Shown piece by piece: positions 10,294 to 60,735 of a DNA stretch of 64,000 nucleotides. The notes under the pieces were generated by a model. It saw only the letters and a program-made list of their open reading frames with translations, was not told the origin of the DNA and ran no database searches. The stretch spans positions 35,673 to 99,672 of the forward strand of contig JAQWBS010000005.1 of assembly GCA_028706255.1 (NCBI GenBank), written 5' to 3'. Positions within the stretch are counted from its first letter, which is position 1, and each line of letters begins with the position of its first letter. This stretch comes from Alphaproteobacteria bacterium. Lineage in GTDB: Bacteria > Pseudomonadota > Alphaproteobacteria > RF32 > CAG-239. The translations under genes were made by a program, and so were the position numbers.

Positions 10294-13200
10294 ATGGGAA
10301 TGTTAAATAAGAAAAAATATTTAGCCAGAAGAATTACGGACTATGTCGGAACAGCGATTTTTGCTTTCTTGCTCATTTTTATATGGCAACTTTATCGTTC
10401 GCCAATTCCATTGCCTTTCTTAAAGCCATATATCATCAAAGCCTTGAATCACGATAGTCAGGAATATGCTGTGGCGGTTGAAAGTGTGAACTTAGAATTA
10501 GTCCGCTCCATTCAGCCAATTAAGATTATTGCTCGAGAGGTTGAATATAAAAACAATAAAGGTAGCATTTCAATTAATGCACCAAGAATTGAAATTTCAT
10601 TCAGTGTACGTGCCTTAATTCGAGGCATAATTTCGCCGAGTTCTGTTGTGTTTGATAGCCCATCTGTTTCCGTTTTTACCAACTATGGTGAAACAGATAA
10701 AAGTTCTGAAATGAGCTTGAATGAGAAAAAAATCGGCTATTATTTCGACACTTTCAATCGCTTCATTGAGCGTTTCAATTCGCAAGATTTATCTTATCCT
10801 GAAAGTTATATCAATTATATTGCCATTCAAAATGGTGATTTTGAGTTTCATGAGGTTGACCTTAATCGAAACTGGAATTTTGTTAAAGCAAATTATGTGT
10901 TTGATAGGGATAGAGAAGATATAAACATTGGCATTGATGGTAATTTGATGATGGGTGAAGAAGCTGTTCCGCTTGATTTTGATTTGAAATATATGCCAAA
11001 AGTTGAGAAAGTTGACATTGATTTAGCCTTTTCAAATTTCTTGCCCTCAAAGGCTGTGGAAGCTTTTATTTCCGAGCAAGAACAAGCTGCAATCTATAAG
11101 GTTGATGTGCCAATTAATGGCAAACTTGACATTCTTGTCGATTTTAAGAAAGTTTTACAAAACAAGAATAATATCTCTAAGAGTTTAGACACTGCTGTTG
11201 AAGACTTCAAATTTAGATTTGAAGGAGATGATGGCAAAATTGCTTTTTCTGATAATGAAGCGTTTAACTATGACATTAAGGCATTTAGTTTGTCTGGGGA
11301 AGTTGACAGTGGCTTAAATGAAATTAAAATTTCTGATGCGCAGTTTGATATGGGAGAGAAGTCGACTTCTTTGAGTTTATATATTTCAGGTTTTAAAAAT
11401 TTATTACTCAAGAGTTCAATGAAAGACTTGAAAATTACGCTCAAGACTGAAGTTGAAAAAATGAATTTTAGCGAATTGCCTCGTTATTGGCCACGCTATA
11501 TTGCTGAAGATGCTTGGATTTGGGTTAAAGAAGGGATTTATGAGGGAGAAATTAAGGACGCTGCTTTTGCGTTTGAATTTGCTTATGACGCTAAACAAAA
11601 AGGACTTGCTTTCAAAAATTTAAGTGGAGAAGGAAAAGTCGAAAATGCCTCTTTGAATTATCTTGAGGGAATGCCTCATGCGCATAAAGTTTTTGGAAAA
11701 GCCACCTTTTATAATGATAAAATTGATATAAAAATTGATAAGGGTGAATCTGTTGGGAATAAGCTCACAGATGGACGTGTGATTTTATATGATTTAGATA
11801 AATATGATAACTTCATAGATATTCAACTTTCAGCAACTTCTTCCATTCCTGACGCTTTAAAGTTGATTGATAGCCCACCTTTGGAATTTGCAAGTGAAAT
11901 GGGCATTAAACCAGATGATATTTCTGGAAAAGCTGAAATCAATCTTAAACTAGATTTTGAATTAAAGAAAACTTTGACACCTGAAGAAGTGAAAGTGGCA
12001 GTTCAGTCCAAACTTTCAGATGTTACCATTAAAAATATTATCAAAGATAAAATCATCAAAGGGGATAGACTTGATTTGTCTGTGAATAATAAAGAAATGG
12101 TGGTGCGTGGTGATGTTGTGATTGATGAACTTCCAATGAATTTGGTTTGGCAAAAGCCTTTTATGAATAATAAATATCTCAATAAATATGAACTTTCATT
12201 TGATTTGAATACGCATATGAAGAAAAAACTAGGTTTTGATTTTGATATTTTGAAAGCCCCATATTTTATTGGCGATACCAAAATTAAGGCGAATGTGCTA
12301 GAAGTGAAAACAAATAAGTTTAAAGTCAATTTTGCTTCAGATTTGCTTGAAAATGAGATAAATTATGCCTTCCTTGGGTTTCTTAAAGAAAAAGGCGTGG
12401 TCGGAAGTTTGAATTTTTCCGTTGATGTGGAAAATGACAAAGTGAAAAAAATTAATGAGATAAAACTCACTAAAGAAGATTTTGAAGTTGAAGCTTCAAT
12501 GGATTTGAACAAAAAAGGTGAAATTGAAACCATTGATATCACGAAAGTGAAAGGACCCAAAACAAGTGCCAAAGCTAAGGTGATGATGAGCAAAGTGAAT
12601 GGTCAAGAACTAATTAAAGTGAACATTTCTGGATTGAGCTATGACATTTCTAATCTTTTTGAGATAAATATTAAAAGCAATGAAAAAACAGACTTAGATC
12701 CTGAAGAATATCTTAAACAAATGCCAAATACGGACATTAACATTGCCGTGGATAGCTTATGGACAAACAAAGAAGTTCCTGTGACGAACTTTGCGGGAAA
12801 TATGAAAATCAGGAACAAAATTGGCATTGATGAAATAAAAATGGTGGGCAATTTTGCGTATGTTAAAGATTCAAATTTCAGGTTTGAATATCTGCCAAGA
12901 GAACAAGGTGAGCATCTCATTAATGTCACCAGTAGTGATGCTGGAAAAGCTCTGAAAATTTTGAGGCTATATGACTATATGAATGGGGGAGATTTAAAAA
13001 TTTCTGCGCTTAAAGAAAAAGATGGTAAAATTGTTGGGCATGCCAAAATTAGAAGTTTTAACATCTTAAACACCAGTTTGTTGGCAAAAGTGGTGAGTAT
13101 GGCATCTTTAACAGGCATTATTAACACGTTGAGCGGTGAAGGAATTGCTTTTTCTCACCTTGACGTGCCATTTGAATTTGATGGTAGTGTGATAGAGATG

Positions 13201-13491
13201 AAAGAAGCAAAAGCTTTCGGAAATGTGTTGGGAATTTCGGCAAATGGTTATTATGATTATGACACAAGCCGTATAAAACTGGGAGGAATGCTTGCCCCTG
13301 CTTATAGTATCAATCGTTTTCTGGCAGGAATTCCACTGGTTGGAAGATTGCTTTCAGGAAAAGATGGCACAGTCTTTGCCGCGAGCTATCGTGTTTCTGG
13401 GGATGCGGAAAACCCTAAAATTAAAGTTGATCCACTTTCGGCAATTAGCCCTAATTCTATTAAAGAGATGTTTTCTAAAGATGAAAATTAA
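10294..13491 (+). CDS. AsmA-family / DUF3971 large envelope protein (AsmA_2 C-terminal domain)
   Basis: N-terminal TM; 1065 aa; C-terminal region (…GISANGYYDYD…GGMLAPAYSINRFLAGIPLVGRLLSGKDGTVFAASYRVSGDAENPKIKVDPLS…) matches the conserved tail of AsmA/YhdP-like proteins. Confidence 0.6.
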   Translation: MGMLNKKKYLARRITDYVGTAIFAFLLIFIWQLYRSPIPLPFLKPYIIKALNHDSQEYAVAVESVNLELVRSIQPIKIIAREVEYKNNKGSISINAPRIEISFSVRALIRGIISPSSVVFDSPSVSVFTNYGETDKSSEMSLNEKKIGYYFDTFNRFIERFNSQDLSYPESYINYIAIQNGDFEFHEVDLNRNWNFVKANYVFDRDREDINIGIDGNLMMGEEAVPLDFDLKYMPKVEKVDIDLAFSNFLPSKAVEAFISEQEQAAIYKVDVPINGKLDILVDFKKVLQNKNNISKSLDTAVEDFKFRFEGDDGKIAFSDNEAFNYDIKAFSLSGEVDSGLNEIKISDAQFDMGEKSTSLSLYISGFKNLLLKSSMKDLKITLKTEVEKMNFSELPRYWPRYIAEDAWIWVKEGIYEGEIKDAAFAFEFAYDAKQKGLAFKNLSGEGKVENASLNYLEGMPHAHKVFGKATFYNDKIDIKIDKGESVGNKLTDGRVILYDLDKYDNFIDIQLSATSSIPDALKLIDSPPLEFASEMGIKPDDISGKAEINLKLDFELKKTLTPEEVKVAVQSKLSDVTIKNIIKDKIIKGDRLDLSVNNKEMVVRGDVVIDELPMNLVWQKPFMNNKYLNKYELSFDLNTHMKKKLGFDFDILKAPYFIGDTKIKANVLEVKTNKFKVNFASDLLENEINYAFLGFLKEKGVVGSLNFSVDVENDKVKKINEIKLTKEDFEVEASMDLNKKGEIETIDITKVKGPKTSAKAKVMMSKVNGQELIKVNISGLSYDISNLFEINIKSNEKTDLDPEEYLKQMPNTDINIAVDSLWTNKEVPVTNFAGNMKIRNKIGIDEIKMVGNFAYVKDSNFRFEYLPREQGEHLINVTSSDAGKALKILRLYDYMNGGDLKISALKEKDGKIVGHAKIRSFNILNTSLLAKVVSMASLTGIINTLSGEGIAFSHLDVPFEFDGSVIEMKEAKAFGNVLGISANGYYDYDTSRIKLGGMLAPAYSINRFLAGIPLVGRLLSGKDGTVFAASYRVSGDAENPKIKVDPLSAISPNSIKEMFSKDEN

Positions 13492-43293: not shown

Positions 43294-44067
43294 ATGAAAA
43301 AGATTATTTTTACGACCCTCTTTTCTTTTTGTTTTATCTCTGGTGCTTCGGCAGTGGATTTGAGCAATGCTTATGGTGAAAAAACAATGGAAGAAAAGTT
43401 GAGAGCCTATCAGAAAATTAACACTCAGCTTCAAGATGAAGATAAAACCCCTGAAAAAGCTAAAATTAAGCTCTATGAAGAAGAGGAAGAAGAACATATC
43501 TTACCTGCAAAATCAGAGAGCGAACCTTTAACCGTTGAACCTTTGACAAGTTCTCCTTCAGATGAAACAACTGAAGAAGGCACAATTTCAAAATATTGGA
43601 ATAAGTTTAAGCACAACACTTCTGAAACTTGGAACAATCCAACTAATTATAATGTGATGATTCCTTTCTATGCTTGGCACAACCGCTTGGCATATGACAA
43701 GAAACATCTTGATAAATATAATGAAGAAGCTTGGGGTTTGGGTTTTGCAATGTCACGCTATGATGAAGATGATGACTGGCACTCGCTTTATGCAATGGTG
43801 TTTAAGGATTCAAATTTCCATCCTGAAACAATGTTCGGCTATGCTTACCAGAGTCGTCACTATTTTGATTGCAACCATAAATGGTTTGCAGGGGCGGGCT
43901 TTACACTTGGCTTGACTCAAAGACATGAATATTCATATATTCCAGTGCCTTTGCCTTTGCCAATGGTCAGCTTTGGACATCGAAATTTCAACATCAATAT
44001 GGCTTATGTGCCAGGGATTACGAATGACGGAAACGTTGCGTTCTTCTTCACCAATGTTGAATTCTAA
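43294..44067 (+). CDS. pagP: PagP-like lipid A palmitoyltransferase with an acidic N-terminal extension
   Basis: Residues about 100-257 align closely by eye with E. coli PagP (…PFYAWHNRLAYDKK…WGLGFAMSRYDEDDDWHSLYAMVFKDS…YIPVPLPLPMVSFG…YVPGITNDGNVAFFF…EF); signal peptide plus about 70 aa of Glu/Ser/Thr-rich linker. Confidence 0.7.
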   Translation: MKKIIFTTLFSFCFISGASAVDLSNAYGEKTMEEKLRAYQKINTQLQDEDKTPEKAKIKLYEEEEEEHILPAKSESEPLTVEPLTSSPSDETTEEGTISKYWNKFKHNTSETWNNPTNYNVMIPFYAWHNRLAYDKKHLDKYNEEAWGLGFAMSRYDEDDDWHSLYAMVFKDSNFHPETMFGYAYQSRHYFDCNHKWFAGAGFTLGLTQRHEYSYIPVPLPLPMVSFGHRNFNINMAYVPGITNDGNVAFFFTNVEF

Positions 44068-48095: not shown

Positions 48096-48722
48096 GTGTC
48101 ACATTTAATTTTTTTTACTATGGTACTTTTTTTTACTTTATTAGTTCTAGTTGTGTTAACCTTTTCTTTTTCATTTAATTTCTTTTACATTAATTTCTGG
48201 TGGAGATATAAAACTTGGATTAAAGGAAAAATCATTTTCCTGCCAATGATTGTCAAAGAAGGTAAATTGACCTTTGAAGACCCTTCTTTTGAGGCTTATA
48301 TTAAGCTAAACAGAAATGATTATCATCTCTCAGATGAGTTTAAAAATTTTGAAAGAAAAAGACTACATCTTCCTTTTGCTTCTTGTTCCATTGCACCTTT
48401 TGCCAGTTGTTCTTTTGCGTTTGCAGAAATGAATTTGAAAATTGTTTTCATTCAAGATGATTGTGTGAAATGTCTAATTCCAAGAGTTTATTATGAAGAT
48501 GAATTTCAGTTTGATGTTTTATCGCTGAAGAATGAAGTGTTGATTGATTATTGCTTGAAAAAAGAGTTTGTTAAAACTCACGTTTTTGACCTGCAAGAAG
48601 GAGGCGATATTCATCAAGCAAAGAAGAACCTTTTTTGCCTTAAGGCGGAAGATGGCAAAATTTCTGTGTCTATTGAGCCTAGAATTGTCAAAGCTAAAAA
48701 GGAAGAAATTCCTGAGTTGTGA
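48096..48722 (+). CDS. Hypothetical protein, possibly degenerate (N-terminal hydrophobic stretch, tandem PFASCS repeat)
   Basis: ORF only; the N-terminus is encoded by a poly-T/AT-rich tract; internal tandem repeat LPFASCSIAPFASCSF. Confidence 0.3.
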   Translation: MSHLIFFTMVLFFTLLVLVVLTFSFSFNFFYINFWWRYKTWIKGKIIFLPMIVKEGKLTFEDPSFEAYIKLNRNDYHLSDEFKNFERKRLHLPFASCSIAPFASCSFAFAEMNLKIVFIQDDCVKCLIPRVYYEDEFQFDVLSLKNEVLIDYCLKKEFVKTHVFDLQEGGDIHQAKKNLFCLKAEDGKISVSIEPRIVKAKKEEIPEL

Positions 48723-48800
48723 AAAAGTATCATTCATTTTGAAAAAGGGAAGTTGAAACTTCTCTTTTTTTGTGTTTATATGCAAATAAAGGAACATAAA

Positions 48801-48977
48801 ATGAGTGAGATTTTATTTGAATTTGTCAGAGAGGGAAGCTTGGTTAAAGTTTCAGCGATTGATGTTGAAACAAAAACTGAGGCAATCGTTGTCGTGCCTT
48901 TGGGCTTAACTGAAAATCAAATGAAACAACATGCGCTGAACCGCTTGAAATATCTTTTGCAAAAAAAGCGGAAATAA
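48801..48977 (+). CDS. Small hypothetical protein (58 aa)
   Basis: GGAACATAAAATG context; compact, charged C-terminus; ORF-track start at 48753 trimmed to ATG 48801. Confidence 0.4.
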   Translation: MSEILFEFVREGSLVKVSAIDVETKTEAIVVVPLGLTENQMKQHALNRLKYLLQKKRK

Positions 48978-49022
48978 CCCTGTCATAATCCTTTAAATTT
49001 CAAAAAAACTTGTTATAATCAA
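48978..49022 (+). promoter_or_regulatory. Candidate sigma70 promoter with extended -10 (TGtTATAAT) for the giant coiled-coil gene
   Basis: TGTTATAAT at 49011-49019; second TGTCATAAT at 48981-48989; weak -35 elements. Confidence 0.35.
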
Positions 49023-49129
49023 GGCAGATTTTTAGTGCCTCGCTAAGATAAAATTAAACATCTTGCTTTAGAATGTTGAAATGAATTTTATGGTTTGCAA
49101 AGCATATCTTGAAAATAAGGAATTTTTTG

Positions 49130-52100
49130 ATGTCAAAACAAGAACTTGATACACAAGCTTACGAAGAAGAGAGCGTCCTCGATGAAGCAACTTATGAAAG
49201 AGACTTTTCAGAAGAAAGACCTCGCAAAAGCAACATCAATGTTGACGTGCATGAAGGTTGGCTGACTAATAACCTTAATCGCTTGATGATTGGAATTAGT
49301 GTTTTTTGGTTTGCCTTTGTTTTGATTTATATTACCCAATTCTTTGGTTGGTCAAATCTGTTCTTGATGATGCCTGATGAATTTGGCGGTTTTCTTGCTG
49401 GGGTGACTTTGCCTTTGGCAATTATTTGGGTGGTGATGGCATATATTGACCGAGGTTCTAGTTTCAAAAATGAAGCGAAGTTTTTGAGAGCTTATATGAA
49501 CCAGTTGGTTTATCCTGAAGAAGGTAGCGCAAAAACAGCTAAAGCTATGGCGGATGCTATTCGTTCACAAGTGGTTGAACTTCAAGAAGTGACTAAAATT
49601 GCAACCAAACAAACAGATATCATTAAAAATGAACTTTCAAGCCGTGTTGACGACTTTGCCCGTTTGGTTTCTTTGCTTGATAATTATTCAGGTAAGTCAA
49701 TGAGAGAACTTGGCGAAACGGTTGAAACTTTAACGAAAAGTTTTGAATATGTGAGCGATAAAGCCATTGGAGCAACCGACGGGTTTAAAGACACAATTGC
49801 TGAATTTAATGTTTCAGCTAATCAGGTTCAAGATAACTTAAAGACCTTGATTTCTGTTGTTTCGCCACAATTAGATGATATGGAAAAATATGCAGCAAGA
49901 CTTCAAAACTTGAACATTGATAATGAAAACCGTATGGCAAAAGCGAATAATTTGCTTTCTGAATTTAGTGCAAAATCAAGCACCAATATGGAATATGTTG
50001 CTGACTTACTCACAAACCAATTGACGAAAATTGATGAATCTTCTTCAAAAGTGAGAGAAGAATATGGCTCAATTGAAAAAACGTTGGATAAGAGTTTGGA
50101 AAAAGTGGGCGATTTACTCACTTCACAAAGCAAATTTGTTTTGGAACATGTGGATATGCTTGGTAAGAAATCTGATGTGCTTTCAGGTAAATTCACTGAA
50201 CATGGCGAAAAAATCAGTCTTGAGATTGAAAAGATTATGTCTCGCACAAATTCTTTGGAAGAATCAATTGCAATCCAAGTGAGAGATTTAGACAGCGTTT
50301 CTAAACGAATTGAAGGTTCAATGCAAGAAGTTGAAGATTCCGTCAATTCACAAGTGGCTGTGCTTGAAGATAAATCAAAATATGCGATTGAAACAATTTC
50401 TTCTTTGGTTGAAAAACTTGAAGATGAAAATAATCGTATTGCCGAAGTAACGGATAAAAACATCGAAAGAGGCGAAAAAGTTTCTGCTGAAGTTGCAAAA
50501 AGAAATGACGTTTTGCATAATGTTTCAGAAGAAATTTTGACACATTTGAGAAGCTTAAGTCAAGAACTTGAAATGAACACCAACAACATCAGAATTCAGT
50601 CTGAAGATTCAATTGCCAAGTTTAATGACGTGAATAATAATCTGAAGAAAAACACAGAATCGCTCAATGAAACAACCTCAATCATTGTCACACAAAGCAA
50701 AATTGGTGAAACCTCTTTGGCACAACAGCAACGTCATATTGCTGATTCAATCAGCCGTCTGGACGCAACTAAGGGTGAACTTAAACGTCAAATTGATGAG
50801 CTCACTCGTGCGGCAACAATTGTGAACCAAGAAGCTGAAACTTCTCTTGCGAATGTTAAAAAACATCTTGAAGAAGTTATCTCTAGTTCTGAAGAAGTTG
50901 CCAAAAGAAGTCAAAAAATTCTTGAGAAAATGCAACACCAAGCAACCGAATTTGATGAAACATCGGATAGAGTTTTGGATAAAACAACCAAAGCAGGCGA
51001 AATTCTTGAAACTCAGAATAAGAAAATTGGTGAAACTTCTGAAAACATTCTTGAAAGAGCAAACGAAGTTAAGCGAATTATTGAAAAAGAAGCAGAAGTT
51101 ATTGATTCAACAACAACAAGTTCTGAAAAAACATATCAAAACATTCTCAATTCGTTTGAAAGTCAATCTGTTCTCATCAACTCTGTTGCTGAAAATACTG
51201 TCTCTTACGTTTCGGATGTGGTTCAAGCTTTGGATGAAAAAGCGGAAGCCATTAACTTGCTCTTTAAGCACCAAGAAAATGAATTTAAAGATATTTGTGA
51301 AAAAATCTCTGAAAACACAGGTAGTATTGGTTCTTCATTGAAACAAAACTTATCAACCATTGAACAAAGTGCAGACAGAGTCTTTTCTCGTATGGCACTT
51401 TTGGAAGAAGATGTCACCAAGCGTTCTGAAACAGTTATCTCTAGTTCAACGAGAACCATTGACCGCTTGGCAGAAGTGGATAATGCCATTGGCTTGAGAA
51501 ATAATGAAGTGAACGAATTTGTTAAATCTTCATCTGAAAAACTTGGTGAAATTGCTGAGAGCTTCAAAACAAATATTAGTGCTTTCTCAAACATTGTGAA
51601 AGAAGTTAAAGATGAGTCAAATGAAACAACCAACAACTTGCTAACAAATTTCAATAAGGTTAAGGAAGTTAACTCTAGTCTTGTCCAAGAAACGAAAAAC
51701 GTTTCAACAATTATTGACAATAATATCAAAAATATTGATGTGGCAATGATTAAAGCAAAAGCACAAGCAGACGCAATTAGAGAAACTTTTGAACAACAAA
51801 AAGAAAGCTTGAGCGACATTGTGAATGTGGTTTCAACGCAATCCAGATTAGGCGAGGCATCTCTCACACAGCAATATAAAATTTTGTCTGATGTTTCAAC
51901 AGATGTTGCTAAGAAGATGAATGAAATTAATGATAGTTTCAAAAAAGGCACAGATAAAGTCTTTGATACAACAGGTAAAGTGGCTTATGAAATTGATGTT
52001 CTGGGTGATAGATTGCTGAAAGTTGGCGAAGATGTTGCAAAGTCTTCAAAATCGACCATTAAAGATGTTGAACAAGTGAATATGGCCTTGTCACAATCTG

Positions 52101-53149
52101 CAGAAGACTTAATCCATACGGCAACAACGTCAAATAAGTCTATCTCTGATGTGATGAAAAACTACGAAACATATATTTCCAGATTTTCAACAGTCACTGC
52201 TGAAGCCAGCACCAGCGTTGTTGAAATTAGCGATTTAATCACTGAACAAAATGATAAAATGATTAAAATTAGTGAAGATACCAAACAACTGGTTGATTGT
52301 TTCAATGTGGTCTTGAACGACACATCATTACAACTTTCAAATCGTGCAAATTATGCTTACGACAAAGTGAAAGGTCTGGGCGAAAGCTTTAAAAACTTGA
52401 GTATGCAACTTGAAGAAACAACCAAACATAGTTCAAAACATTTGGAAAATTCAGGCGATAAATTACGTTCGTCAATTTCTGAAATTGCTGCAAATGCTGA
52501 AAGAATTTCAAATGAAATCAGAAATTCAGGCGAAGTGTTCTTGAAACAATCTGAAGTTTTGGTCGGAGCAACAGATGAAACCTTGAAAAAAGTTGAAAAT
52601 GTGATGAGTTTCTTGAATAAATCTTCAGGTGAATTTGTCAATAAGTCTGAAACAATTGTTCAAAAATCCGCAACGTTTAATGAGATGTTTGATAAGCAAA
52701 TCGCTCTTTTAGCATCAACTTCTAAGAAAGCAGATGAGAAGATTAAAGAGCTCAACAAGGGTTATGATGAAGTGGAACTTTCAAACTTCTTGAAATCTGC
52801 CGCTCATATTGTGGAACAGTTAGAAGCTGCTTCTGTGGACATTAACCGCATTTATAATCCTGATTCTGAAGAAGAACTTTGGAAGAAATATTATAACGGT
52901 GATAGTTCTGCTTTTGTTAGACATTTGGAAAAAACAATGACCAAAAAGCAAATCATCAACATCAAAAACTTATTTGAGAAAAATGTTGAGTTCAGAACTT
53001 TTGTCACACGTTACATTTCAGAATTTGAACATTTGTTGGATAAAGCTAAGAAGAGCGAAAACGCAAGCTTATTGCTTTCAGTGCTTTCAGGCTCTGACAT
53101 TGGAAAAATTTACTATATCTTGGCAAAATCTTTGGATAAAATAGATTAA
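49130..53149 (+). CDS. Giant (1339-aa) membrane-anchored coiled-coil protein: acidic N-tail, two TM helices, about 1150 aa of apolipoprotein-like heptad repeats, and a C-terminal globular domain
   Basis: TM segments LMIGISVFWFAFVLIYITQFF and FLAGVTLPLAIIWVVMAYI; long low-complexity E/K/S/T/N-rich helical repeats; stop overlaps the dusB start. Confidence 0.7.
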   Translation: MSKQELDTQAYEEESVLDEATYERDFSEERPRKSNINVDVHEGWLTNNLNRLMIGISVFWFAFVLIYITQFFGWSNLFLMMPDEFGGFLAGVTLPLAIIWVVMAYIDRGSSFKNEAKFLRAYMNQLVYPEEGSAKTAKAMADAIRSQVVELQEVTKIATKQTDIIKNELSSRVDDFARLVSLLDNYSGKSMRELGETVETLTKSFEYVSDKAIGATDGFKDTIAEFNVSANQVQDNLKTLISVVSPQLDDMEKYAARLQNLNIDNENRMAKANNLLSEFSAKSSTNMEYVADLLTNQLTKIDESSSKVREEYGSIEKTLDKSLEKVGDLLTSQSKFVLEHVDMLGKKSDVLSGKFTEHGEKISLEIEKIMSRTNSLEESIAIQVRDLDSVSKRIEGSMQEVEDSVNSQVAVLEDKSKYAIETISSLVEKLEDENNRIAEVTDKNIERGEKVSAEVAKRNDVLHNVSEEILTHLRSLSQELEMNTNNIRIQSEDSIAKFNDVNNNLKKNTESLNETTSIIVTQSKIGETSLAQQQRHIADSISRLDATKGELKRQIDELTRAATIVNQEAETSLANVKKHLEEVISSSEEVAKRSQKILEKMQHQATEFDETSDRVLDKTTKAGEILETQNKKIGETSENILERANEVKRIIEKEAEVIDSTTTSSEKTYQNILNSFESQSVLINSVAENTVSYVSDVVQALDEKAEAINLLFKHQENEFKDICEKISENTGSIGSSLKQNLSTIEQSADRVFSRMALLEEDVTKRSETVISSSTRTIDRLAEVDNAIGLRNNEVNEFVKSSSEKLGEIAESFKTNISAFSNIVKEVKDESNETTNNLLTNFNKVKEVNSSLVQETKNVSTIIDNNIKNIDVAMIKAKAQADAIRETFEQQKESLSDIVNVVSTQSRLGEASLTQQYKILSDVSTDVAKKMNEINDSFKKGTDKVFDTTGKVAYEIDVLGDRLLKVGEDVAKSSKSTIKDVEQVNMALSQSAEDLIHTATTSNKSISDVMKNYETYISRFSTVTAEASTSVVEISDLITEQNDKMIKISEDTKQLVDCFNVVLNDTSLQLSNRANYAYDKVKGLGESFKNLSMQLEETTKHSSKHLENSGDKLRSSISEIAANAERISNEIRNSGEVFLKQSEVLVGATDETLKKVENVMSFLNKSSGEFVNKSETIVQKSATFNEMFDKQIALLASTSKKADEKIKELNKGYDEVELSNFLKSAAHIVEQLEAASVDINRIYNPDSEEELWKKYYNGDSSAFVRHLEKTMTKKQIINIKNLFEKNVEFRTFVTRYISEFEHLLDKAKKSENASLLLSVLSGSDIGKIYYILAKSLDKID

Positions 53150-54147
53150 TGCAAGCGTTAGGATTCAAAAGTAAAGTCTTTTTAGCCCCAATGGCAGGAA
53201 TTACAGATCTTCCAATGAGAAGATTGGTTGCTTCAATTGGTGGCGGACAAATGGTTTCCGAAATGGTGGCGATTAATTCGGTACAATATAAAAATCCGAA
53301 GAGTTATCGCATCGCAGATGTAAGGAGCGAGCCTTATCCTGTGGTCGTTCAGTTGTTAGGGAATGAGCCAGAACTATTTGCTGAAGTTGTGCCTTTGATT
53401 GAAGAAATGGGTGCTCATTCCATTGATATTAATATGGGATGTCCGGTTAAGAAAATCACGGCAAATAACACAGGTTCAGCTTTGATGAAAGATATTTCAC
53501 TGGCAGCGAAAATTGTTGAATCTGCCGTGAAAGCCTCCAAACTCAAAGTGAGCGTAAAATTCCGAAAAGGTTGGGATAATAATTCAGTCAATGCGGTTGA
53601 ATTTGCAAAGATGTGTGAAGATAAAGGAGCTGCATATGTGACAGTTCATGGACGCACCAGAAGTGAGTTCTATTCTGGCAAAGCTGATTGGGACATTATC
53701 AAAGCAGTTAAAGAAAGCGTGAAAATTCCTGTCATTGGGAATGGTGATGTAAATTCACCTCAAAAAGCTCAGGAAATGCTTGCATACACGGGTGTTGATG
53801 CAGTGATGGTTGGCAGAGCAGCTTTAGGAAATCCTTGGATGGTGCCAAATATTCATCAGTTTTTAGAAACAGGTGAAGAACTCCCTAAACCAACGGTTCA
53901 AGAAATTAAACAAGTTCTTTTGAAACATATGGACGAGCTTTTGGCTTATTATAATGAACAAATTGGGCTCCCTGTGACCAGAAAATATGTCTGTTGGTAT
54001 TGTAAAAATCTTTATGATGCGAAACGTTTTCGAGAACGTTATAACCGCATTGATAATTATGCCGATGCAGTGGCAGAAATTAATGACTATTTCGACAACA
54101 TTGCTGAATTTGTGACGGGTGAGGACAGCGAAGAAGTTTTGTTTTAA
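53149..54147 (+). CDS. dusB: tRNA-dihydrouridine synthase B
   Basis: FLAPMAGITD start; MGCP and catalytic K/C region; TIM-barrel Dus family. Confidence 0.85.
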   Translation: MQALGFKSKVFLAPMAGITDLPMRRLVASIGGGQMVSEMVAINSVQYKNPKSYRIADVRSEPYPVVVQLLGNEPELFAEVVPLIEEMGAHSIDINMGCPVKKITANNTGSALMKDISLAAKIVESAVKASKLKVSVKFRKGWDNNSVNAVEFAKMCEDKGAAYVTVHGRTRSEFYSGKADWDIIKAVKESVKIPVIGNGDVNSPQKAQEMLAYTGVDAVMVGRAALGNPWMVPNIHQFLETGEELPKPTVQEIKQVLLKHMDELLAYYNEQIGLPVTRKYVCWYCKNLYDAKRFRERYNRIDNYADAVAEINDYFDNIAEFVTGEDSEEVLF

Positions 54148-54213: not shown

Positions 54214-54435
54214 ATGGCTATGTCCGGCAAAGTTCAAAGCGATTTTTTAGATGAAATTAAAAAAAATGATGTTTCAGTAACGGTTTTTCTCGTTAATGGA
54301 ATTAAGTTGCAAGGGTTGATTACATTTTTTGATGATGAAACAATTTTGCTTCGTCGTGATGGACACACACAACTTATTTATAAACATGCCGTTTCAACAA
54401 TTATGCCAAATACAATGGTAGAAATTCAAGAGTAA
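54214..54435 (+). CDS. hfq: RNA chaperone Hfq
   Basis: Sm1/Sm2 motifs (VFLVNGIKLQG…YKHAVSTI). Confidence 0.9.
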   Translation: MAMSGKVQSDFLDEIKKNDVSVTVFLVNGIKLQGLITFFDDETILLRRDGHTQLIYKHAVSTIMPNTMVEIQE

Positions 54436-54439
54436 AAAC

Positions 54440-55738
54440 TTGGGGCTGATTGAATTAAATCAAAACAAAAAAAGCAAGGCGATTGTCGTCTTTCCTAATG
54501 TTTATCATTCAGAAATTAAACTCTCTCCGGAAGCAAGGCTTGAAGAAGCTGAAGGGCTTGCTTTGGCAATTAATTTAGAGATTGTTCATAAAGAAATTGT
54601 CAATTTGAAGCAACTCAAACCAGCAACTTATTTTTCCAGTGGTTTAATTGAAAGATTTTTGCCAATTATTGAAGAAAATGAAGCAGAGCTTTTCATTATC
54701 GACACCACCATTAGCCCAATTCAACAAAGAAACTTAGAAAAAGCATTAAAGGTTAAAATCATTGATAGAACAGCTTTGATTTTGGAGATTTTCGGTGAAA
54801 GAGCCAACACCCGAGAAGGCGTTTTGCAAGTTGAACTAGCACATTTAACCTATCAACGTAGCCGTTTGGTTAGAAGTTGGACACACTTGGAACGTCAAAG
54901 AGGCGGAGCGGGCTTTTTAGGAGGCCCTGGGGAAACGCAAATAGAGTTAGACCGCCGTTTAATTGATGATAAAATTGTAAAAATCAAAAAAGAATTAGAA
55001 AAAGTAAAAAAAACCCGTGAACTTCATCGAGGTTCAAGACGTAAAGTGCCTTATCCTGTTGTGGCATTAGTGGGTTATACGAACGCTGGAAAATCTTCTT
55101 TGTTCAATGCTCTTTCCAAAGCAGGTGTTTTTGCTGAAGACTTGCTATTTGCGACGCTTGACCCAACGATGCGAAAAATCAGTCTGCCAAGTGGACGAGA
55201 AATTATCTTGTCCGACACAGTGGGCTTCATTTCAGATTTGCCACATGAATTAGTGATGTCTTTTCGTGCCACTTTGGAAGAAGTTTTGGAAGCTGACGTT
55301 GTCGTTCACGTGAGAGATATTGCAAATGTCGACACAGCGGCTCAGAAAAAAGATGTGCTTTCTGTTTTAGCGAATTTAGGCTTAAAAGAAATTGAATCTG
55401 ATGTAAAATATCTTGAAGTTTTGAACAAAATTGACCTTTTGAGCGATGATAAAAAAACTTATTATCAAAATTCAACTAAAATTTTGGAAAGCAATGCTGC
55501 AACTTCCGCTCATTCTGGCGAAGGATTAGATCTTTTGTTGAAAAAAATAGATGCCAAACTTTCGGCAAAACACCAAATTGTTAAACTCAAACTCAATGTT
55601 GCTGAAGGCAAGTTAATGGCTTGGATATATGAAAATGCTGAAGTTTTGAGTGTAGAAAACAAAAAAGAGCTTATGTATTTAACGGTTAAAATTTCCAAAC
55701 TCAATTTAGATAAGTTTAATTCTAAAATTGCTTCCTAA
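54440..55738 (+). CDS. hflX: GTPase HflX
   Basis: HflX N-domain followed by G1 (GYTNAGKSSL), G3 (DTVGF) and G4 (NKID) motifs; the start codon is uncertain (TTG at 54440). Confidence 0.8.
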   Translation: MGLIELNQNKKSKAIVVFPNVYHSEIKLSPEARLEEAEGLALAINLEIVHKEIVNLKQLKPATYFSSGLIERFLPIIEENEAELFIIDTTISPIQQRNLEKALKVKIIDRTALILEIFGERANTREGVLQVELAHLTYQRSRLVRSWTHLERQRGGAGFLGGPGETQIELDRRLIDDKIVKIKKELEKVKKTRELHRGSRRKVPYPVVALVGYTNAGKSSLFNALSKAGVFAEDLLFATLDPTMRKISLPSGREIILSDTVGFISDLPHELVMSFRATLEEVLEADVVVHVRDIANVDTAAQKKDVLSVLANLGLKEIESDVKYLEVLNKIDLLSDDKKTYYQNSTKILESNAATSAHSGEGLDLLLKKIDAKLSAKHQIVKLKLNVAEGKLMAWIYENAEVLSVENKKELMYLTVKISKLNLDKFNSKIAS

Positions 55739-57564: not shown

Positions 57565-57766
57565 CTTATTATTTCCCATATATAATTAACACTGTTTGGG
57601 AGTGTACTTTAGTTTCTAAATATATGCAAAACACAAAACATTTATATTTATTACAATTCAAAAATTGTTTCTATTGCTGAATTTAGCGATAATTTTGTTG
57701 ATTTTGTAGGTTTTATTGCTATATTTAATCAAGATAAATAGTATAAGGGTTTTAAATGTGACTAAA

Positions 57767-58528
57767 ATGTTAACCAAAAGATGTATGACACTTGCCGTTG
57801 TCTTAGGTGTTTGTTTCTCAGCAGGAGTTGTTCGTGCTGATATTCCTGTGGAAAATGAAGATAAGTTTGAAGGCTTTAATCGAGCTATGTTCGGTTTTAA
57901 TATGACATTAGACGAATATGTGCTTGAACCTCTCGCAAAAGGCTATCGTGCCATTACCAATCAATATGTGCGCGACAGAGTAAGTGGTGTCCTTTCAAAT
58001 ATTGTTGAACCTGTTTCTGCGGTCAATCATCTATTACAAGGTGACGTCGTAAAAAGTGGTCAGAATATTGGTCGATTTGCTTTAAACTCAACCTTAGGGC
58101 TTTTGGGAATGTATGATGTTGCTGGTGGCGGTTGGCATCTTGCTCCTGCAAAAACAAATTTTGATGAAACTTTGGCAACTTGGTGTGTTAAAGATGGTCC
58201 TTATCTTGTGTTCCCTGTTTTAGGAATGAACACAATGCGTTCTTTCAGTGGGGAAATTGTTGATGGTTTTGCGAACCCACTCTATATTGCCACTTACGGC
58301 GATTCTAATATCAATGCAAAGGTTCTTTACCCTTATGCTGGTTTAGTGATGATTTCCAAAAGAGAAAAATCAATTGAATTTATTGATAGTTTCAAGCAAA
58401 GCTCTGTTGATTTATATGCAATTTCTCGTTCTGCCTTTTTGCAAAACCGGAAGAAAATGGCAAGATGTGGCGTCGTGGAAGAAAGTGCAACACCAGATTA
58501 TGATTTTGATTTTGATGTTGAAGAATAA
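57767..58528 (+). CDS. mlaA: MlaA/VacJ outer-membrane lipoprotein of the phospholipid-maintenance system
   Basis: Signal peptide; MlaA family core (…FNRAMFGFN…LNSTLGLLGMYDVA…). Confidence 0.7.
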   Translation: MLTKRCMTLAVVLGVCFSAGVVRADIPVENEDKFEGFNRAMFGFNMTLDEYVLEPLAKGYRAITNQYVRDRVSGVLSNIVEPVSAVNHLLQGDVVKSGQNIGRFALNSTLGLLGMYDVAGGGWHLAPAKTNFDETLATWCVKDGPYLVFPVLGMNTMRSFSGEIVDGFANPLYIATYGDSNINAKVLYPYAGLVMISKREKSIEFIDSFKQSSVDLYAISRSAFLQNRKKMARCGVVEESATPDYDFDFDVEE

Positions 58529-58554
58529 ACGTAAAAGTTTTAGGAGAAAATAGA

Positions 58555-59151
58555 ATGAAAAAATTGGCTTTCTTGGTTGTTTGTTTGGCTTTCGTGGCCA
58601 CAAATGCTTTGGCTGAAATTAATACAAAAAAAGCAGAGGCTTTTATTGAAAAATTGACCACAGACGGCATTGAGGAATTGGTTAATTCTAATGCTTCTAA
58701 GGCTGTTAAACAAGAAAAGTTTCGTAAACTTTTTAATGAAGATCTTGACTTGGACTTTATTGGTAAATTTGTTTTAGGTCGTTATTGGAGAACAGCAACT
58801 CCAACACAACAAAAAGATTTCTTAGACGCTTATAGAGAACTCAATATTCAAACTTGGTCAGCTCGTTTTGATGAGTTCAAAGGCAAAACGTTTGAGTTCC
58901 AAAATGTGACACCATCAACCAGTCAAGACCAAGTCTTTGTGAACACAATTGTAGATATGAAAAATGGTCAACAGCCTGCAAAAGTTGTTTGGCGTGTGCG
59001 TCAAAAGGGTGAAACATTCAAAGTTGTTGATATTATCATTGAAAATGTCAGCCTTGCTATTTCTGCTCGTAATGAATATGCTGGATATATCAAAGCAAAT
59101 GGGCTTGATGCCTTGATTAAAGATTTGCAAACAAGAGCAAAGAAATCTTAA
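58555..59151 (+). CDS. mlaC: MlaC/Ttg2D periplasmic phospholipid-binding protein
   Basis: Signal peptide; Tol_Tol_Ttg2 family layout; adjacent to mlaA. Confidence 0.7.
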   Translation: MKKLAFLVVCLAFVATNALAEINTKKAEAFIEKLTTDGIEELVNSNASKAVKQEKFRKLFNEDLDLDFIGKFVLGRYWRTATPTQQKDFLDAYRELNIQTWSARFDEFKGKTFEFQNVTPSTSQDQVFVNTIVDMKNGQQPAKVVWRVRQKGETFKVVDIIIENVSLAISARNEYAGYIKANGLDALIKDLQTRAKKS

Positions 59152-59222: not shown

Positions 59223-60443
59223 TTATGATTTTAAATCAATGATTGTGCTAACCATTTCATTGTTTACGGTGAAGGTCTGCGTGTTCATTGAATAAGCTCG
59301 TTGCACTTGAATCATTCGAGAAAATTCTTCTTCAGGGTTGACATTTGAGCTCTCCAAAGATTGAGCTTTAACAATTGTTTTATCTGCCGTATCATATCCC
59401 ATTACATAAAAACTATCTCCAGTGCCATTTCCAGCTTGAAAAAGAGTTCCTGTGACTGCGGTTAAGTTTTCGGGAGCGGTAAAGCCAACCAAAGAAAGTT
59501 TAGCGACATCAATTGTTTGTCCGTTGGAATAAGCTGCTTTTAGAACACCATCATCATCAATATAACTTTTGAGGAAATTTCCGCTAGATTTTCCATCTTG
59601 TGCAAGGTCTTTAACAACATTTGCACCATCATACTGTGTCATTTTAGAAATGTCCATTGTCACAACATTTTGACTACCGTCACTCCAATCAACAGTGAAG
59701 TCGAAATTTTGTGGAGAAAGAACTTCTCCATTATTTCCGAAAACCACCTGAATCGGGTCTGAAGATACAGTTGCGCCATCCATATTAAAGGAAACATCCC
59801 ACGTGTTCACATTTCCTTCAACTTTACTGAAAATCATATTCATATTTTGACCGTCATTATTTGGCCCATAAATAGTGATTCCATAACTGCTTGAATTTAC
59901 GTCAGAAGCAGGAACGTTTGCTAAAAGAGAAACTGTTGACGTTGGAACAGAAGGAATAACATCTGTGCTTGGCATAATGATATGGCTTGGAGAACTACTG
60001 AAACCTCCTTCTTCAAGGGCTTCGAATCCTTGAACTTTCATATTGCTAGAATTTACCATATAAGTAACACCATCTTCGGTGAGGGTGCTAAAATTTCCGG
60101 CACGACTATAATAAACATTGTCATAACCATCTCTGACCATAAAAAAGGCGTTTTCACGGTTAATGGCAACATCATAATTATTACCAGTTGAAGCAACTGT
60201 TCCTTGTTTCAAGATATTTGTGCGTTCATAAGCACTGACACCATAGATGTCAGAACGTGAACCATAATTGCCACTGGCATTGGTTTTGATTGCAGGCTGA
60301 CTTCCGAGCAAGGTTGAAAACATTGTCTCGTTAGACTTATATCCTGTTGTTGTCATATTCGCAATGTTCATGCTCACGCTTTGCATTGCTCTTGACTGTG
60401 CTTCCATTCCACTAATAGAAGCATAAAAATTACTCAAAGACAT
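59223..60443 (-). CDS. flgE: Flagellar hook protein FlgE-like (flagellar hook/rod family)
   Basis: N-terminal MSLSNFYASISGMEAQ…MNIANMTTTGYK; C-terminal …ESSNVNPEEEFSRMIQVQRAYSMNTQTF…; 406 aa fits the hook protein. Confidence 0.6.
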   Translation of the reverse strand: MSLSNFYASISGMEAQSRAMQSVSMNIANMTTTGYKSNETMFSTLLGSQPAIKTNASGNYGSRSDIYGVSAYERTNILKQGTVASTGNNYDVAINRENAFFMVRDGYDNVYYSRAGNFSTLTEDGVTYMVNSSNMKVQGFEALEEGGFSSSPSHIIMPSTDVIPSVPTSTVSLLANVPASDVNSSSYGITIYGPNNDGQNMNMIFSKVEGNVNTWDVSFNMDGATVSSDPIQVVFGNNGEVLSPQNFDFTVDWSDGSQNVVTMDISKMTQYDGANVVKDLAQDGKSSGNFLKSYIDDDGVLKAAYSNGQTIDVAKLSLVGFTAPENLTAVTGTLFQAGNGTGDSFYVMGYDTADKTIVKAQSLESSNVNPEEEFSRMIQVQRAYSMNTQTFTVNNEMVSTIIDLKS

Positions 60444-60735
60444 TTTGAATATCCCATATAATTTACCACATAAGATTATATGCAAATTTCGTGCCATTTA
60501 ATTATTTTATATATAAAATCTATTTTAAGTTGTTTTTTTATTATTAATAAATATCAAATTTTTACAGATGAAATATTTTTTTAAAATATATAAATTTCAA
60601 GCCAAAAACACTCATTTATGCGTAAAATTTTTAGATTATATCCACGTTTTTAAGATTTTTGTTGTTTTTAAGGAAAATCGGGAGTATGAATCTAGTTGAG
60701 TTTTTTTAATTAATCATATTAGAGAGAAAAAAATA

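Follow-up and report, generated by a model that had tools for sequence, protein, structure and literature searches.

What does a bacterium do with a protein of more than a thousand residues that is nearly all helix, and does such a protein represent a new kind of system? The question is raised by a gene directly ahead of dusB in a 64,000-nucleotide stretch of Alphaproteobacteria bacterium (RF32; CAG-239), contig JAQWBS010000005.1, which we analysed as a whole (hereafter the window; all coordinates are window positions). The gene encodes a protein of 1339 amino acids (aa), here called the giant protein. We find that it is a version, with a differently built rod, of a known and poorly understood family, and no new kind of system. 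The giant protein probably belongs, as a distant relative, to the GPR/RgsE superfamily and would be a membrane-anchored cytoplasmic coiled-coil scaffold, perhaps of a zone of envelope growth or division.

The giant gene is genuine and is conserved among uncultured gut Alphaproteobacteria. Its homologues among 5.8 billion proteins searched fall into 203 clusters, and the best 120 of these span 1208-1458 aa at 40-85% identity, with 96-100% query coverage in almost all; their named members are entered as 'hypothetical protein' of Alphaproteobacteria metagenome-assembled genomes (MAGs). When genomes were scanned with each species represented by a single one, 231 relatives came up, of which 80 were kept and analysed as 16-kb loci. 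All 80 come from gut, rumen or caecum MAGs, under labels such as uncultured Alphaproteobacteria, 'Candidatus Scatocola' and 'uncultured Azospirillum sp.', and all have dusB downstream of the giant gene. The open reading frame (ORF) is neither interrupted nor a stretch of non-conserved low-complexity DNA, being intact in 80/80 relatives. The 1339-aa ORF of the original prediction, which had been made from the window sequence without database searches, is thus upheld, with one correction: its start holds, and its end moves from 53151, where the dusB start codon finishes, to 53149. The longest version of the ORF runs from a TTG (49109..53149, + strand, 1346 aa); the alignments of homologues begin at the methionine encoded by the ATG at 49130, which AAGGA precedes.

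49130..53149, + strand: coding sequence of the giant protein, GPR/RgsE-superfamily member, 1339 aa, stop included
49117..49121, + strand: Shine-Dalgarno-like AAGGA, 8 nt before the ATG, read from the sequence

The protein comprises four parts: an acidic N-terminal tail (N-tail), a two-helix membrane hairpin with a conserved juxtamembrane segment (N-dom), a helical stretch of ~1075 residues (the rod) and a 125-aa domain at the extreme C-terminus (C-dom). Their positions, with those of the main landmarks within the rod, are as follows; secondary structure and confidence (predicted local distance difference test, pLDDT) come from AlphaFold2 (AF2) models, and A1 is an alignment of 23 diverse relatives of the giant protein.

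49130..49282, + strand: N-tail, residues 1-51, acidic, poorly conserved, presumably cytoplasmic, AF2 pLDDT <50
49259..49729, + strand: N-dom, residues 44-200, with first transmembrane helix (TM1, ~52-72), the short, conserved loop GWSNLFLMMPDE, second transmembrane helix (TM2, ~85-106) and juxtamembrane segment
49520..52744, + strand: coiled-coil rod, residues 131-1205, 43 consecutive 25-residue units, predicted to be almost entirely helical
50090..50215, + strand: sole indel hot spot and possible hinge, residues 321-362, from A1 and the AF2 helix break
50378..51532, + strand: internal duplication copy 1, residues ~417-801, with the island SQSK(I/V)(G/S)E(T/A)SLAQQQ
51566..52648, + strand: internal duplication copy 2, residues ~813-1173, with the island TQ.RLGEASL(A/T)QQYK and strong conservation in the distal part (1010-1175)
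52772..53146, + strand: C-dom, residues 1215-1339, extreme C-terminus, predicted all-alpha with ~7 short helices

An acidic tail followed by two transmembrane helices had been foreseen, and both hold: residues 1-52 contain 13 aspartates and glutamates against 6 lysines and arginines, and hydropathy delineates two hydrophobic segments, at ~52-72 and ~85-106, with lysine or arginine after TM2. Within A1, the strongly conserved parts are residues 44-200, 1010-1175 in the distal rod and 1215-1339, N-dom being the most conserved block of all, and smaller conserved islands lie at 520-535, 676-760 and 905-916. The juxtamembrane segment of N-dom carries the motif FK.EAKFLRAYMNQLVYPE.G..TAKAMADAIRSQV, and C-dom the motif ..SVDINRI(Y/F)NP..EE.LWKKYYNGD..F.R.L....EFR..V..Y..EFE... 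An AF2 model of residues 1000-1339, built on a 67-sequence alignment (pLDDT 75), shows two very long helices and, after them, ~7 short ones bundled together, with C-dom at pLDDT ~75-88. The predicted C-terminal globular domain is therefore a distinct unit, although shorter (~125 aa, 1215-1339) than the ~150 aa first proposed. Foldseek with this model gave no fold match in the PDB (best E 0.88), and PDB sequence and profile searches gave nothing specific. Neither in the giant protein nor in eight distant relatives does a Pfam or NCBIfam entry cover N-dom or C-dom; Pfam, NCBIfam and PADLOC together returned only sub-threshold coiled-coil matches for these nine proteins (ATG17-like, DUF948, ZorA tails, SMC).

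The end domains connect the giant protein to proteins of known behaviour. A tblastn search of a 7.3-Gb plasmid collection (PLSDB) with the C-terminal 150 aa returned six records only, from Sinorhizobium meliloti, three Sinorhizobium sp., Shinella and Sphingomonas (E 1e-18 to 6e-14), the genes hit all being of RgsE type, and a Roseospira protein used as query returned the same six and nothing else. The S. meliloti match (E 6e-14) falls at the 3' end of a gene for 2089 aa that bears the annotation 'kinesin' and adjoins petABC on a 3.7-Mb record. RgsE (SMc00190) is a 2089-aa protein that is 42% identical to GPR, the growth pole ring protein of A. tumefaciens (PMC7327166); because both size and locus match, the 'kinesin' gene is RgsE. 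The record itself (CP090106.1, locus L081 here), titled 'S. meliloti strain Ak57 plasmid pSymB', measures 3.72 Mb, carries folP, petABC and RgsE, and is evidently a mislabelled chromosome.

Direct comparison extends the match to both ends. By BLASTP, giant-protein residues 1226-1337 align with RgsE 1976-2087 at 37% identity over 113 aa (E 3e-19), and residues 56-409 with RgsE 126-449 (E 1e-6). Hidden Markov models (HMMs) built from RF32 sequences score RgsE at 71 bits for C-dom and, over RgsE 156-249, at 14.6 bits for N-dom (E 1e-6). A profile made from relatives outside RF32 alone recognizes the two ends of each protein: at the N-terminal end it scores 135.8 bits for the giant protein and 37.1 bits for RgsE 121-273 (E 3e-13), and at the C-terminal end 181.9 bits for the giant protein and 118.5 bits for RgsE 1973-2087 (E 6e-38). 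By these sequence comparisons the giant protein is homologous to RgsE at both ends; the end domains are collinear in the two proteins, and the overall architecture agrees. RgsE is polar and interacts with TolQ, RgsA and RgsS, and 'more distant homologs' of it have been noted in Rhodospirillales and Emcibacterales (PMC7327166); in Brucella, RgsE is found at the new pole (PMC9938171). The suggestion that the protein is a polar scaffold and not an enzyme accordingly fares well, since its end domains are homologous to those of RgsE/GPR, experimentally studied growth-pole proteins that the original prediction had not named; with TipN, which it had named, the likeness is one of layout.

We next consider the rod, where the giant protein and RgsE part company. 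Its composition is rich in S/E/K/L/V/I/N/T, and the claim of near-continuous helix, put at more than 1100 residues, is borne out by an E/K/S/T/N-rich region of ~1075 residues, ~131-1205, that AF2 models almost entirely as helix. The spectrum of L/I/V/M/F positions has a single sharp peak at 3.57 residues; its power is 20.6, and 50 shuffles reached at most 2.35; over 1060 residues the power approximates the coherent sum of that of its thirds, and the local hydrophobic phase stays within ~100 degrees from residue 120 to 1180. Hydrophobic autocorrelation has its peaks at lags of 25 (0.42) and 50 (0.33). Arranged in 25-residue rows that begin at residue 131, the rod fills 43 rows in one register without a break, and each unit has seven core positions (columns 3, 7, 10/11, 14, 17/18, 21 and 25), giving 25/7 = 3.57. 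Columns 3, 7, 14, 21 and 25 are 63-81% LIVMF, the remaining two core positions are split over 10/11 and 17/18, and charged residues make up 0% of columns 7, 14, 21 and 25. By its sequence pattern this is a coiled coil of three heptads plus a four-residue stutter, equivalently 7-7-11. The LIVMF content, 28.6% or 2 in 7, fits a narrow a/d seam, and the pattern is therefore read as a coiled-coil core and not as a broad lipid-binding face. From this we infer a continuous, weakly left-handed coiled coil that would be ~160 nm long (1075 x ~0.15 nm).

The length of the rod is kept with precision within clades. The invariant anchors P129 and W1251 stand exactly 1122 residues apart in 64 relatives and 1184 apart in a further 46, in proteins just 40-55% identical. 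Among the 23 relatives of A1, insertions of 62, 80, 84 or 87 aa all follow residues 321-344, and the main AF2 helix break, at 338-362, coincides with this only indel hot spot of the family. Across the superfamily, the spacing of N- and C-terminal anchors shows no constant helical phase (Rayleigh R 0.13 for turn fraction, 0.06 modulo 25); with values this low we dropped the idea of a phase-locked rod length common to the superfamily, and within-clade length conservation alone stands. The repetition in the giant protein consists of the hydrophobic pattern and one ancient internal duplication (~417-801 against 813-1173, BLASTP E 6e-6 to 2e-4). Only six prolines occur in the 1339 residues, none clustered and one in the rod.

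How far do the end domains reach? An exhaustive phmmer search of 1.84 billion representative proteins with N-dom gave 688 representatives below E 1e-3, 154 of them below E 1e-10. In 41 of the proteins retrieved, HMMs find N-dom opening the chain and C-dom closing it, in chains of 326-1494 aa, with a helical middle of ~50 to ~1150 residues between them. Few members bear names; they are Roseospira visakhapatnamensis WP_184043908.1 and a protein of R. marina (Rhodospirillales), a 774-aa protein of Sphingomonas parapaucimobilis (C-dom 88.6 bits) and partial proteins from MAGs labelled Rickettsiales. The hydrophobic periodicity of non-Rhizobiales members is 3.54-3.58; a 1221-aa relative with RgsE-like synteny (P0295) has a periodicity of 3.655-3.665, as RgsE does. 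Short-rod versions of 537-702 aa (P0133, P0135, P0138 and P0139) have end domains very close to those of the giant protein, with N-dom 47-59% identical. They show that rods can gain or lose large blocks between fairly close relatives.

Taken with the behaviour of RgsE and GPR, these features suggest how the giant protein might work. Both termini would face the cytoplasm, and the rod would be a parallel homo-oligomer with the weak left-handed twist and length given above, keeping C-dom a set distance away from the membrane anchor, or else lying under the membrane. Through the conserved rod patches (520-535, 676-760, 905-916 and 1010-1175) and C-dom the protein may assemble with itself and bind partners. 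If it acts as GPR/RgsE do, the assembly would mark or organize an envelope growth or division zone at a pole or the septum.

Several points weigh against this favoured reading. The rod cannot be aligned with that of RgsE, and its periodicity of 3.57 (25/7, in strict register) differs from the 3.655-3.665 (11/3) of RgsE; the giant protein also has no PF01442 match at E<=1 and no proline-rich regions. The parallel, homo-oligomeric state of the rod is putative. The AF2 monomer model of residues 1-1200, almost all helix with single helices of 195 and 390 residues, is of low confidence (pLDDT 54, predicted template-modelling score 0.26) and was for that reason used for secondary structure only, and the helix breaks differ between it and the model of residues 1000-1339. 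The experimental record is confined to Rhizobiales members. The family is also present in Sphingomonas, which is not known as a unipolar grower, and the host genome is in view over 64 kb only, with its MreB/RodA status lying beyond that stretch. Krol et al. found none of the other Rgs proteins beyond Rhizobiales and proposed that the homologues there have another role (PMC7327166).

Four other explanations deserve weight in differing degrees. TipN, the new-pole landmark of C. crescentus, has ~890 aa, two N-terminal transmembrane helices and a large cytoplasmic coiled coil, a layout that the giant protein shares. It is a coiled-coil pole protein acting on ParA (PMC3718342). A landmark of this type would stay behind at the new pole once the cell has divided, and would then position flagellar assembly or ParA-driven chromosome segregation, not envelope growth. 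The host is flagellated (FlgE-like gene, 59223-60497), parC is a conserved neighbour and family members of 750-910 aa come near TipN in size; against this, Pfam and NCBIfam searches found no family common to the two, the characterized homologues are RgsE and GPR only, and the comparison with TipN, the shorter protein, is one of layout. We regard a TipN-type function as unlikely, if worth keeping in mind. Rather less probable is that the giant protein lies on the inner leaflet as an apolipoprotein- or perilipin-like amphipathic helix that binds or sequesters lipid, as proposed for GPR. GPR is classed as an apolipoprotein-domain protein (PMC8262873), the giant protein shares the long amphipathic helices of PF01442 (apolipoprotein A1/A4/E), and precomputed PF01442 or ApoLp-III matches, weak for PF01442, are on record for some close homologues and also for distant ones. 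The giant protein itself, however, lacks such a match, and its hydrophobic seam is narrow and of a/d type (7 of 25 positions, with charged residues filling the others), with a periodicity of 3.57 and not 3.67, and without the 11/22-mer, proline-punctuated build of the apolipoproteins. The label 'apolipoprotein-like repeats' in the original prediction consequently fits only loosely: the long helical repeats are there, the specific hallmarks are not.

At a similarly low level of credence stands the view that the rod is purely a spacer, or ruler, that tethers a C-dom-bound cytoplasmic partner such as the nucleoid, ParA or a chemosensory array at a set distance from the membrane and has no part in envelope growth. 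The exact within-clade rod length (1122 or 1184 between anchors in 110 proteins), the single indel site and the wide variation of rod length between clades that keep both end domains would all suit a ruler, as would the analogy with Scy, a regular coiled coil that binds ParA (PMC3718342). Yet any in-register coiled coil would also be expected to conserve its length, the characterized homologues act at the growth pole, and the partner is hypothetical. A broader form of the idea, which we consider doubtful, makes N-dom and C-dom the ends of one ancient pan-alphaproteobacterial 'ruler' system in which the clade-specific, exactly conserved length of the rod and its twist would set polar or septal ring geometry, GPR/RgsE would be a Rhizobiales specialization and TipN perhaps another derivative. 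Its reach would take in gut RF32-type MAGs, Rhodospirillales, Sphingomonadales, Rhizobiales and Rickettsiales-labelled MAGs, with rods of ~50 to ~1700 residues and twists of 25/7 against 11/3.

Hardly any credence attaches to the functions implied by the automatic annotations of relatives ('methyl-accepting chemotaxis protein' (MCP), 'chromosome segregation ATPase', 'kinesin'), which would make the giant protein the tail of a ZorA-like anti-phage motor, a chemoreceptor or an SMC-like ATPase. SMC models match below threshold, and ZorA matches reach 46.8 bits against a cut-off of 190 (E 3e-14 in PADLOC), but the latter cover the coiled-coil tail only, at profile positions beyond ~330, and never the MotA/ExbB/TolQ membrane domain. 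The giant protein has two transmembrane helices only and is accompanied by no zorB, ATPase head or MCP signalling domain, and it lies among housekeeping genes, with DUF6898 and dusB at its sides, and in no defence island. ZorA-, MCP- and SMC-type functions are effectively ruled out by domain content, the similarity being confined to the coiled-coil tail.

The position of the giant gene adds a separate question, that of its tie to dusB. The junction, the flanking genes and the local signals are these:

48801..48977, + strand: DUF6898 small protein, 58 aa, upstream syntenic neighbour in most related loci
48992..49019, + strand: promoter-like site of sigma-70 type and extended -10 form, TTTAAA, 16 nt, then TATAAT with a TG ahead of it, a consensus match only
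49903..50463, - strand: antisense ORF of 186 aa within the conserved gene, taken to be non-coding
51223..51951, - strand: antisense ORF within the conserved gene, taken to be non-coding
52357..52641, - strand: antisense ORF within the conserved gene, taken to be non-coding
53147..53151, + strand: TAATG overlap of giant-gene stop and dusB start; the junction reads ..GATTAATGCAA..
53149..54147, + strand: dusB (tRNA-dihydrouridine synthase), probably co-transcribed with the giant gene
54214..54435, + strand: hfq, 73 aa, between dusB and hflX
54440..55738, + strand: hflX, 3' of hfq

The stop codon TAA (53147-53149) and the dusB ATG (53149-53151) have one base in common. The overlap and the adjacency to dusB, which recurs in 80/80 loci, are as predicted; the co-expression drawn from the overlap was overstated. 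Where flanks are long enough the gene order is parC, the DUF6898 small gene, the giant gene, dusB and hflX, and the gap before dusB is a one-base overlap or <=12 nt in the closest relatives and one further clade. In most related loci it is 340-620 nt, and each of the eight spacers examined (8/8) encodes a small conserved protein of 112-195 aa without a Pfam match that ends in ..NR.FDF(K/N)(I/V). This small gene, whose C-terminal motif is ..DFMH..NR.FDF(K/N)(I/V), is seen at L004:9891-10487, at L033:10125-10474 and in most other RF32 loci, and is missing from the window and from loci L001 and L002. Because most relatives hold a gene-bearing spacer of this size, the TAATG overlap looks like a lineage-specific outcome of small-gene loss, with no sign of a functional tie to tRNA modification. 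Co-transcription of the giant gene with dusB-hfq-hflX in the window is plausible, and dusB would have been drawn into it simply through the loss, in this lineage, of the small gene that separated them. The dusB-hfq-hflX order agrees with that of the usual alphaproteobacterial nifR3(dusB)-ntrBC-ntrYX-hfq-hflX cluster minus the ntr genes; dusB and hflX are 1.7-2.3 kb apart in other RF32 loci.

The promoter-like site upstream does have the extended -10 form that had been described, but 'strong' overstates a consensus match of 10/12 positions in a region that holds 3 such sites against 1.6 expected. Three antisense ORFs (94-242 aa) do lie within the gene and are regarded as non-coding because the + strand frame is the conserved one in 80 loci; repetitiveness at the DNA level, to which they had been attributed, is not seen, as no tandem repeat in the giant gene scores above 37. 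Between parC and the DUF6898 gene lies a candidate 208-aa ORF with a GTG start (48096-48722, + strand) and no Pfam or PADLOC match, followed by a terminator-like hairpin at 48741-48770. The window as a whole is core chromosome (PpiD, TpiA, PyrG, an autotransporter, PagP, RecO, ParC, DusB, Hfq, HflX, MlaA, MlaC, FlgE, AccBC). It includes outer-membrane lipid-homeostasis genes at 10294-13491, 43294-44067 and 57716-59151, encoding an AsmA/YhdP-like 1065-aa protein, PagP, MlaA and MlaC, and the FlgE-like hook gene on the - strand. One related locus, L002 (JAISVX010000003.1, 829 kb), is titled 'MAG: Lactobacillaceae bacterium' and has a 64%-identical giant gene in the alphaproteobacterial order parC-giant-dusB-hflX; this MAG is probably mislabelled or mis-binned.

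RgsE-type loci have a small neighbour of their own. A small gene lies divergently upstream of the RgsE-type gene in S. meliloti (L081:2087-2455, - strand), in Sphingomonas parapaucimobilis (L082:4820-5113, - strand) and in the MAG behind P0295 (L084:4030-4344, - strand). It is annotated as an Hpt-domain gene in the first two and has no Pfam match on record in the third, and a 2Fe-2S ferredoxin gene is present in two of the three. This arrangement suggests a conserved tie of RgsE-type genes to a phosphorelay. It is absent from the window and from Roseospira.

GPR/RgsE is central to unipolar growth of Rhizobiales by a mechanism that is unknown, and has been described mainly through weak apolipoprotein-domain matches. 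Our analysis indicates that the conserved parts of the family are instead two end domains without a curated description, a two-helix membrane anchor with its juxtamembrane helix and a 125-aa C-terminal domain, which are common to proteins of ~330 to 2100 aa in several alphaproteobacterial orders, abundant uncultured gut lineages among them. The rod between them can take the form of a 25/7 coiled coil of exceptional regularity, with a length kept constant to the residue. Defining the end domains gives handles for experiments on GPR/RgsE and an annotation for hundreds of proteins now entered as 'hypothetical', 'kinesin', 'ATPase' or 'MCP'.

Comparison with known systems places the giant protein among long coiled coils of quite different ancestry. 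It shares with ZorA tails a long cytoplasmic coiled coil set on a membrane domain and a collinear profile match of up to ~400 residues; the matched region spans window positions 49535-52400 (residues ~136-1091), and the profiles suggest that ZorA tails may use a similar low-twist pattern. Scy, a 1326-aa protein of the Streptomyces polarisome, forms a coiled coil of 51 residues per 14 turns (3.64), binds ParA and organizes polar growth (PMC3718342). Similar in size and regularity, both are very long, strikingly regular and non-canonical coiled coils; Scy, however, is actinobacterial, not homologous and soluble, with no transmembrane anchor and with a 51/14 in place of a 25/7 repeat. RgsE and GPR are closest. 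At 1339 aa, the giant protein is ~750 residues shorter than RgsE (2089), and GPR (Atu1348) has 2115; RgsE has a proline-rich stretch before C-dom, and proline-rich or low-complexity regions near the termini are described for GPR, whereas the giant protein has neither; and the gene order parC-DUF6898-X-dusB contrasts with Fer2-Hpt-RgsE-petABC. Our sequence comparison was with RgsE, and the tie to GPR runs through it. The C-terminus of GPR is essential for its function and localization (PMC8262873), and the importance of this region in GPR deletions fits the strong conservation of C-dom. Tags on its C-terminus inactivate GPR. With both proteins the giant protein would have in common a cytoplasmic N-tail, two N-terminal transmembrane helices and a very long, continuous helical cytoplasmic region, in the topology that we infer, together with a homologous juxtamembrane N-dom and a homologous domain of ~115-125 aa at the extreme C-terminus.

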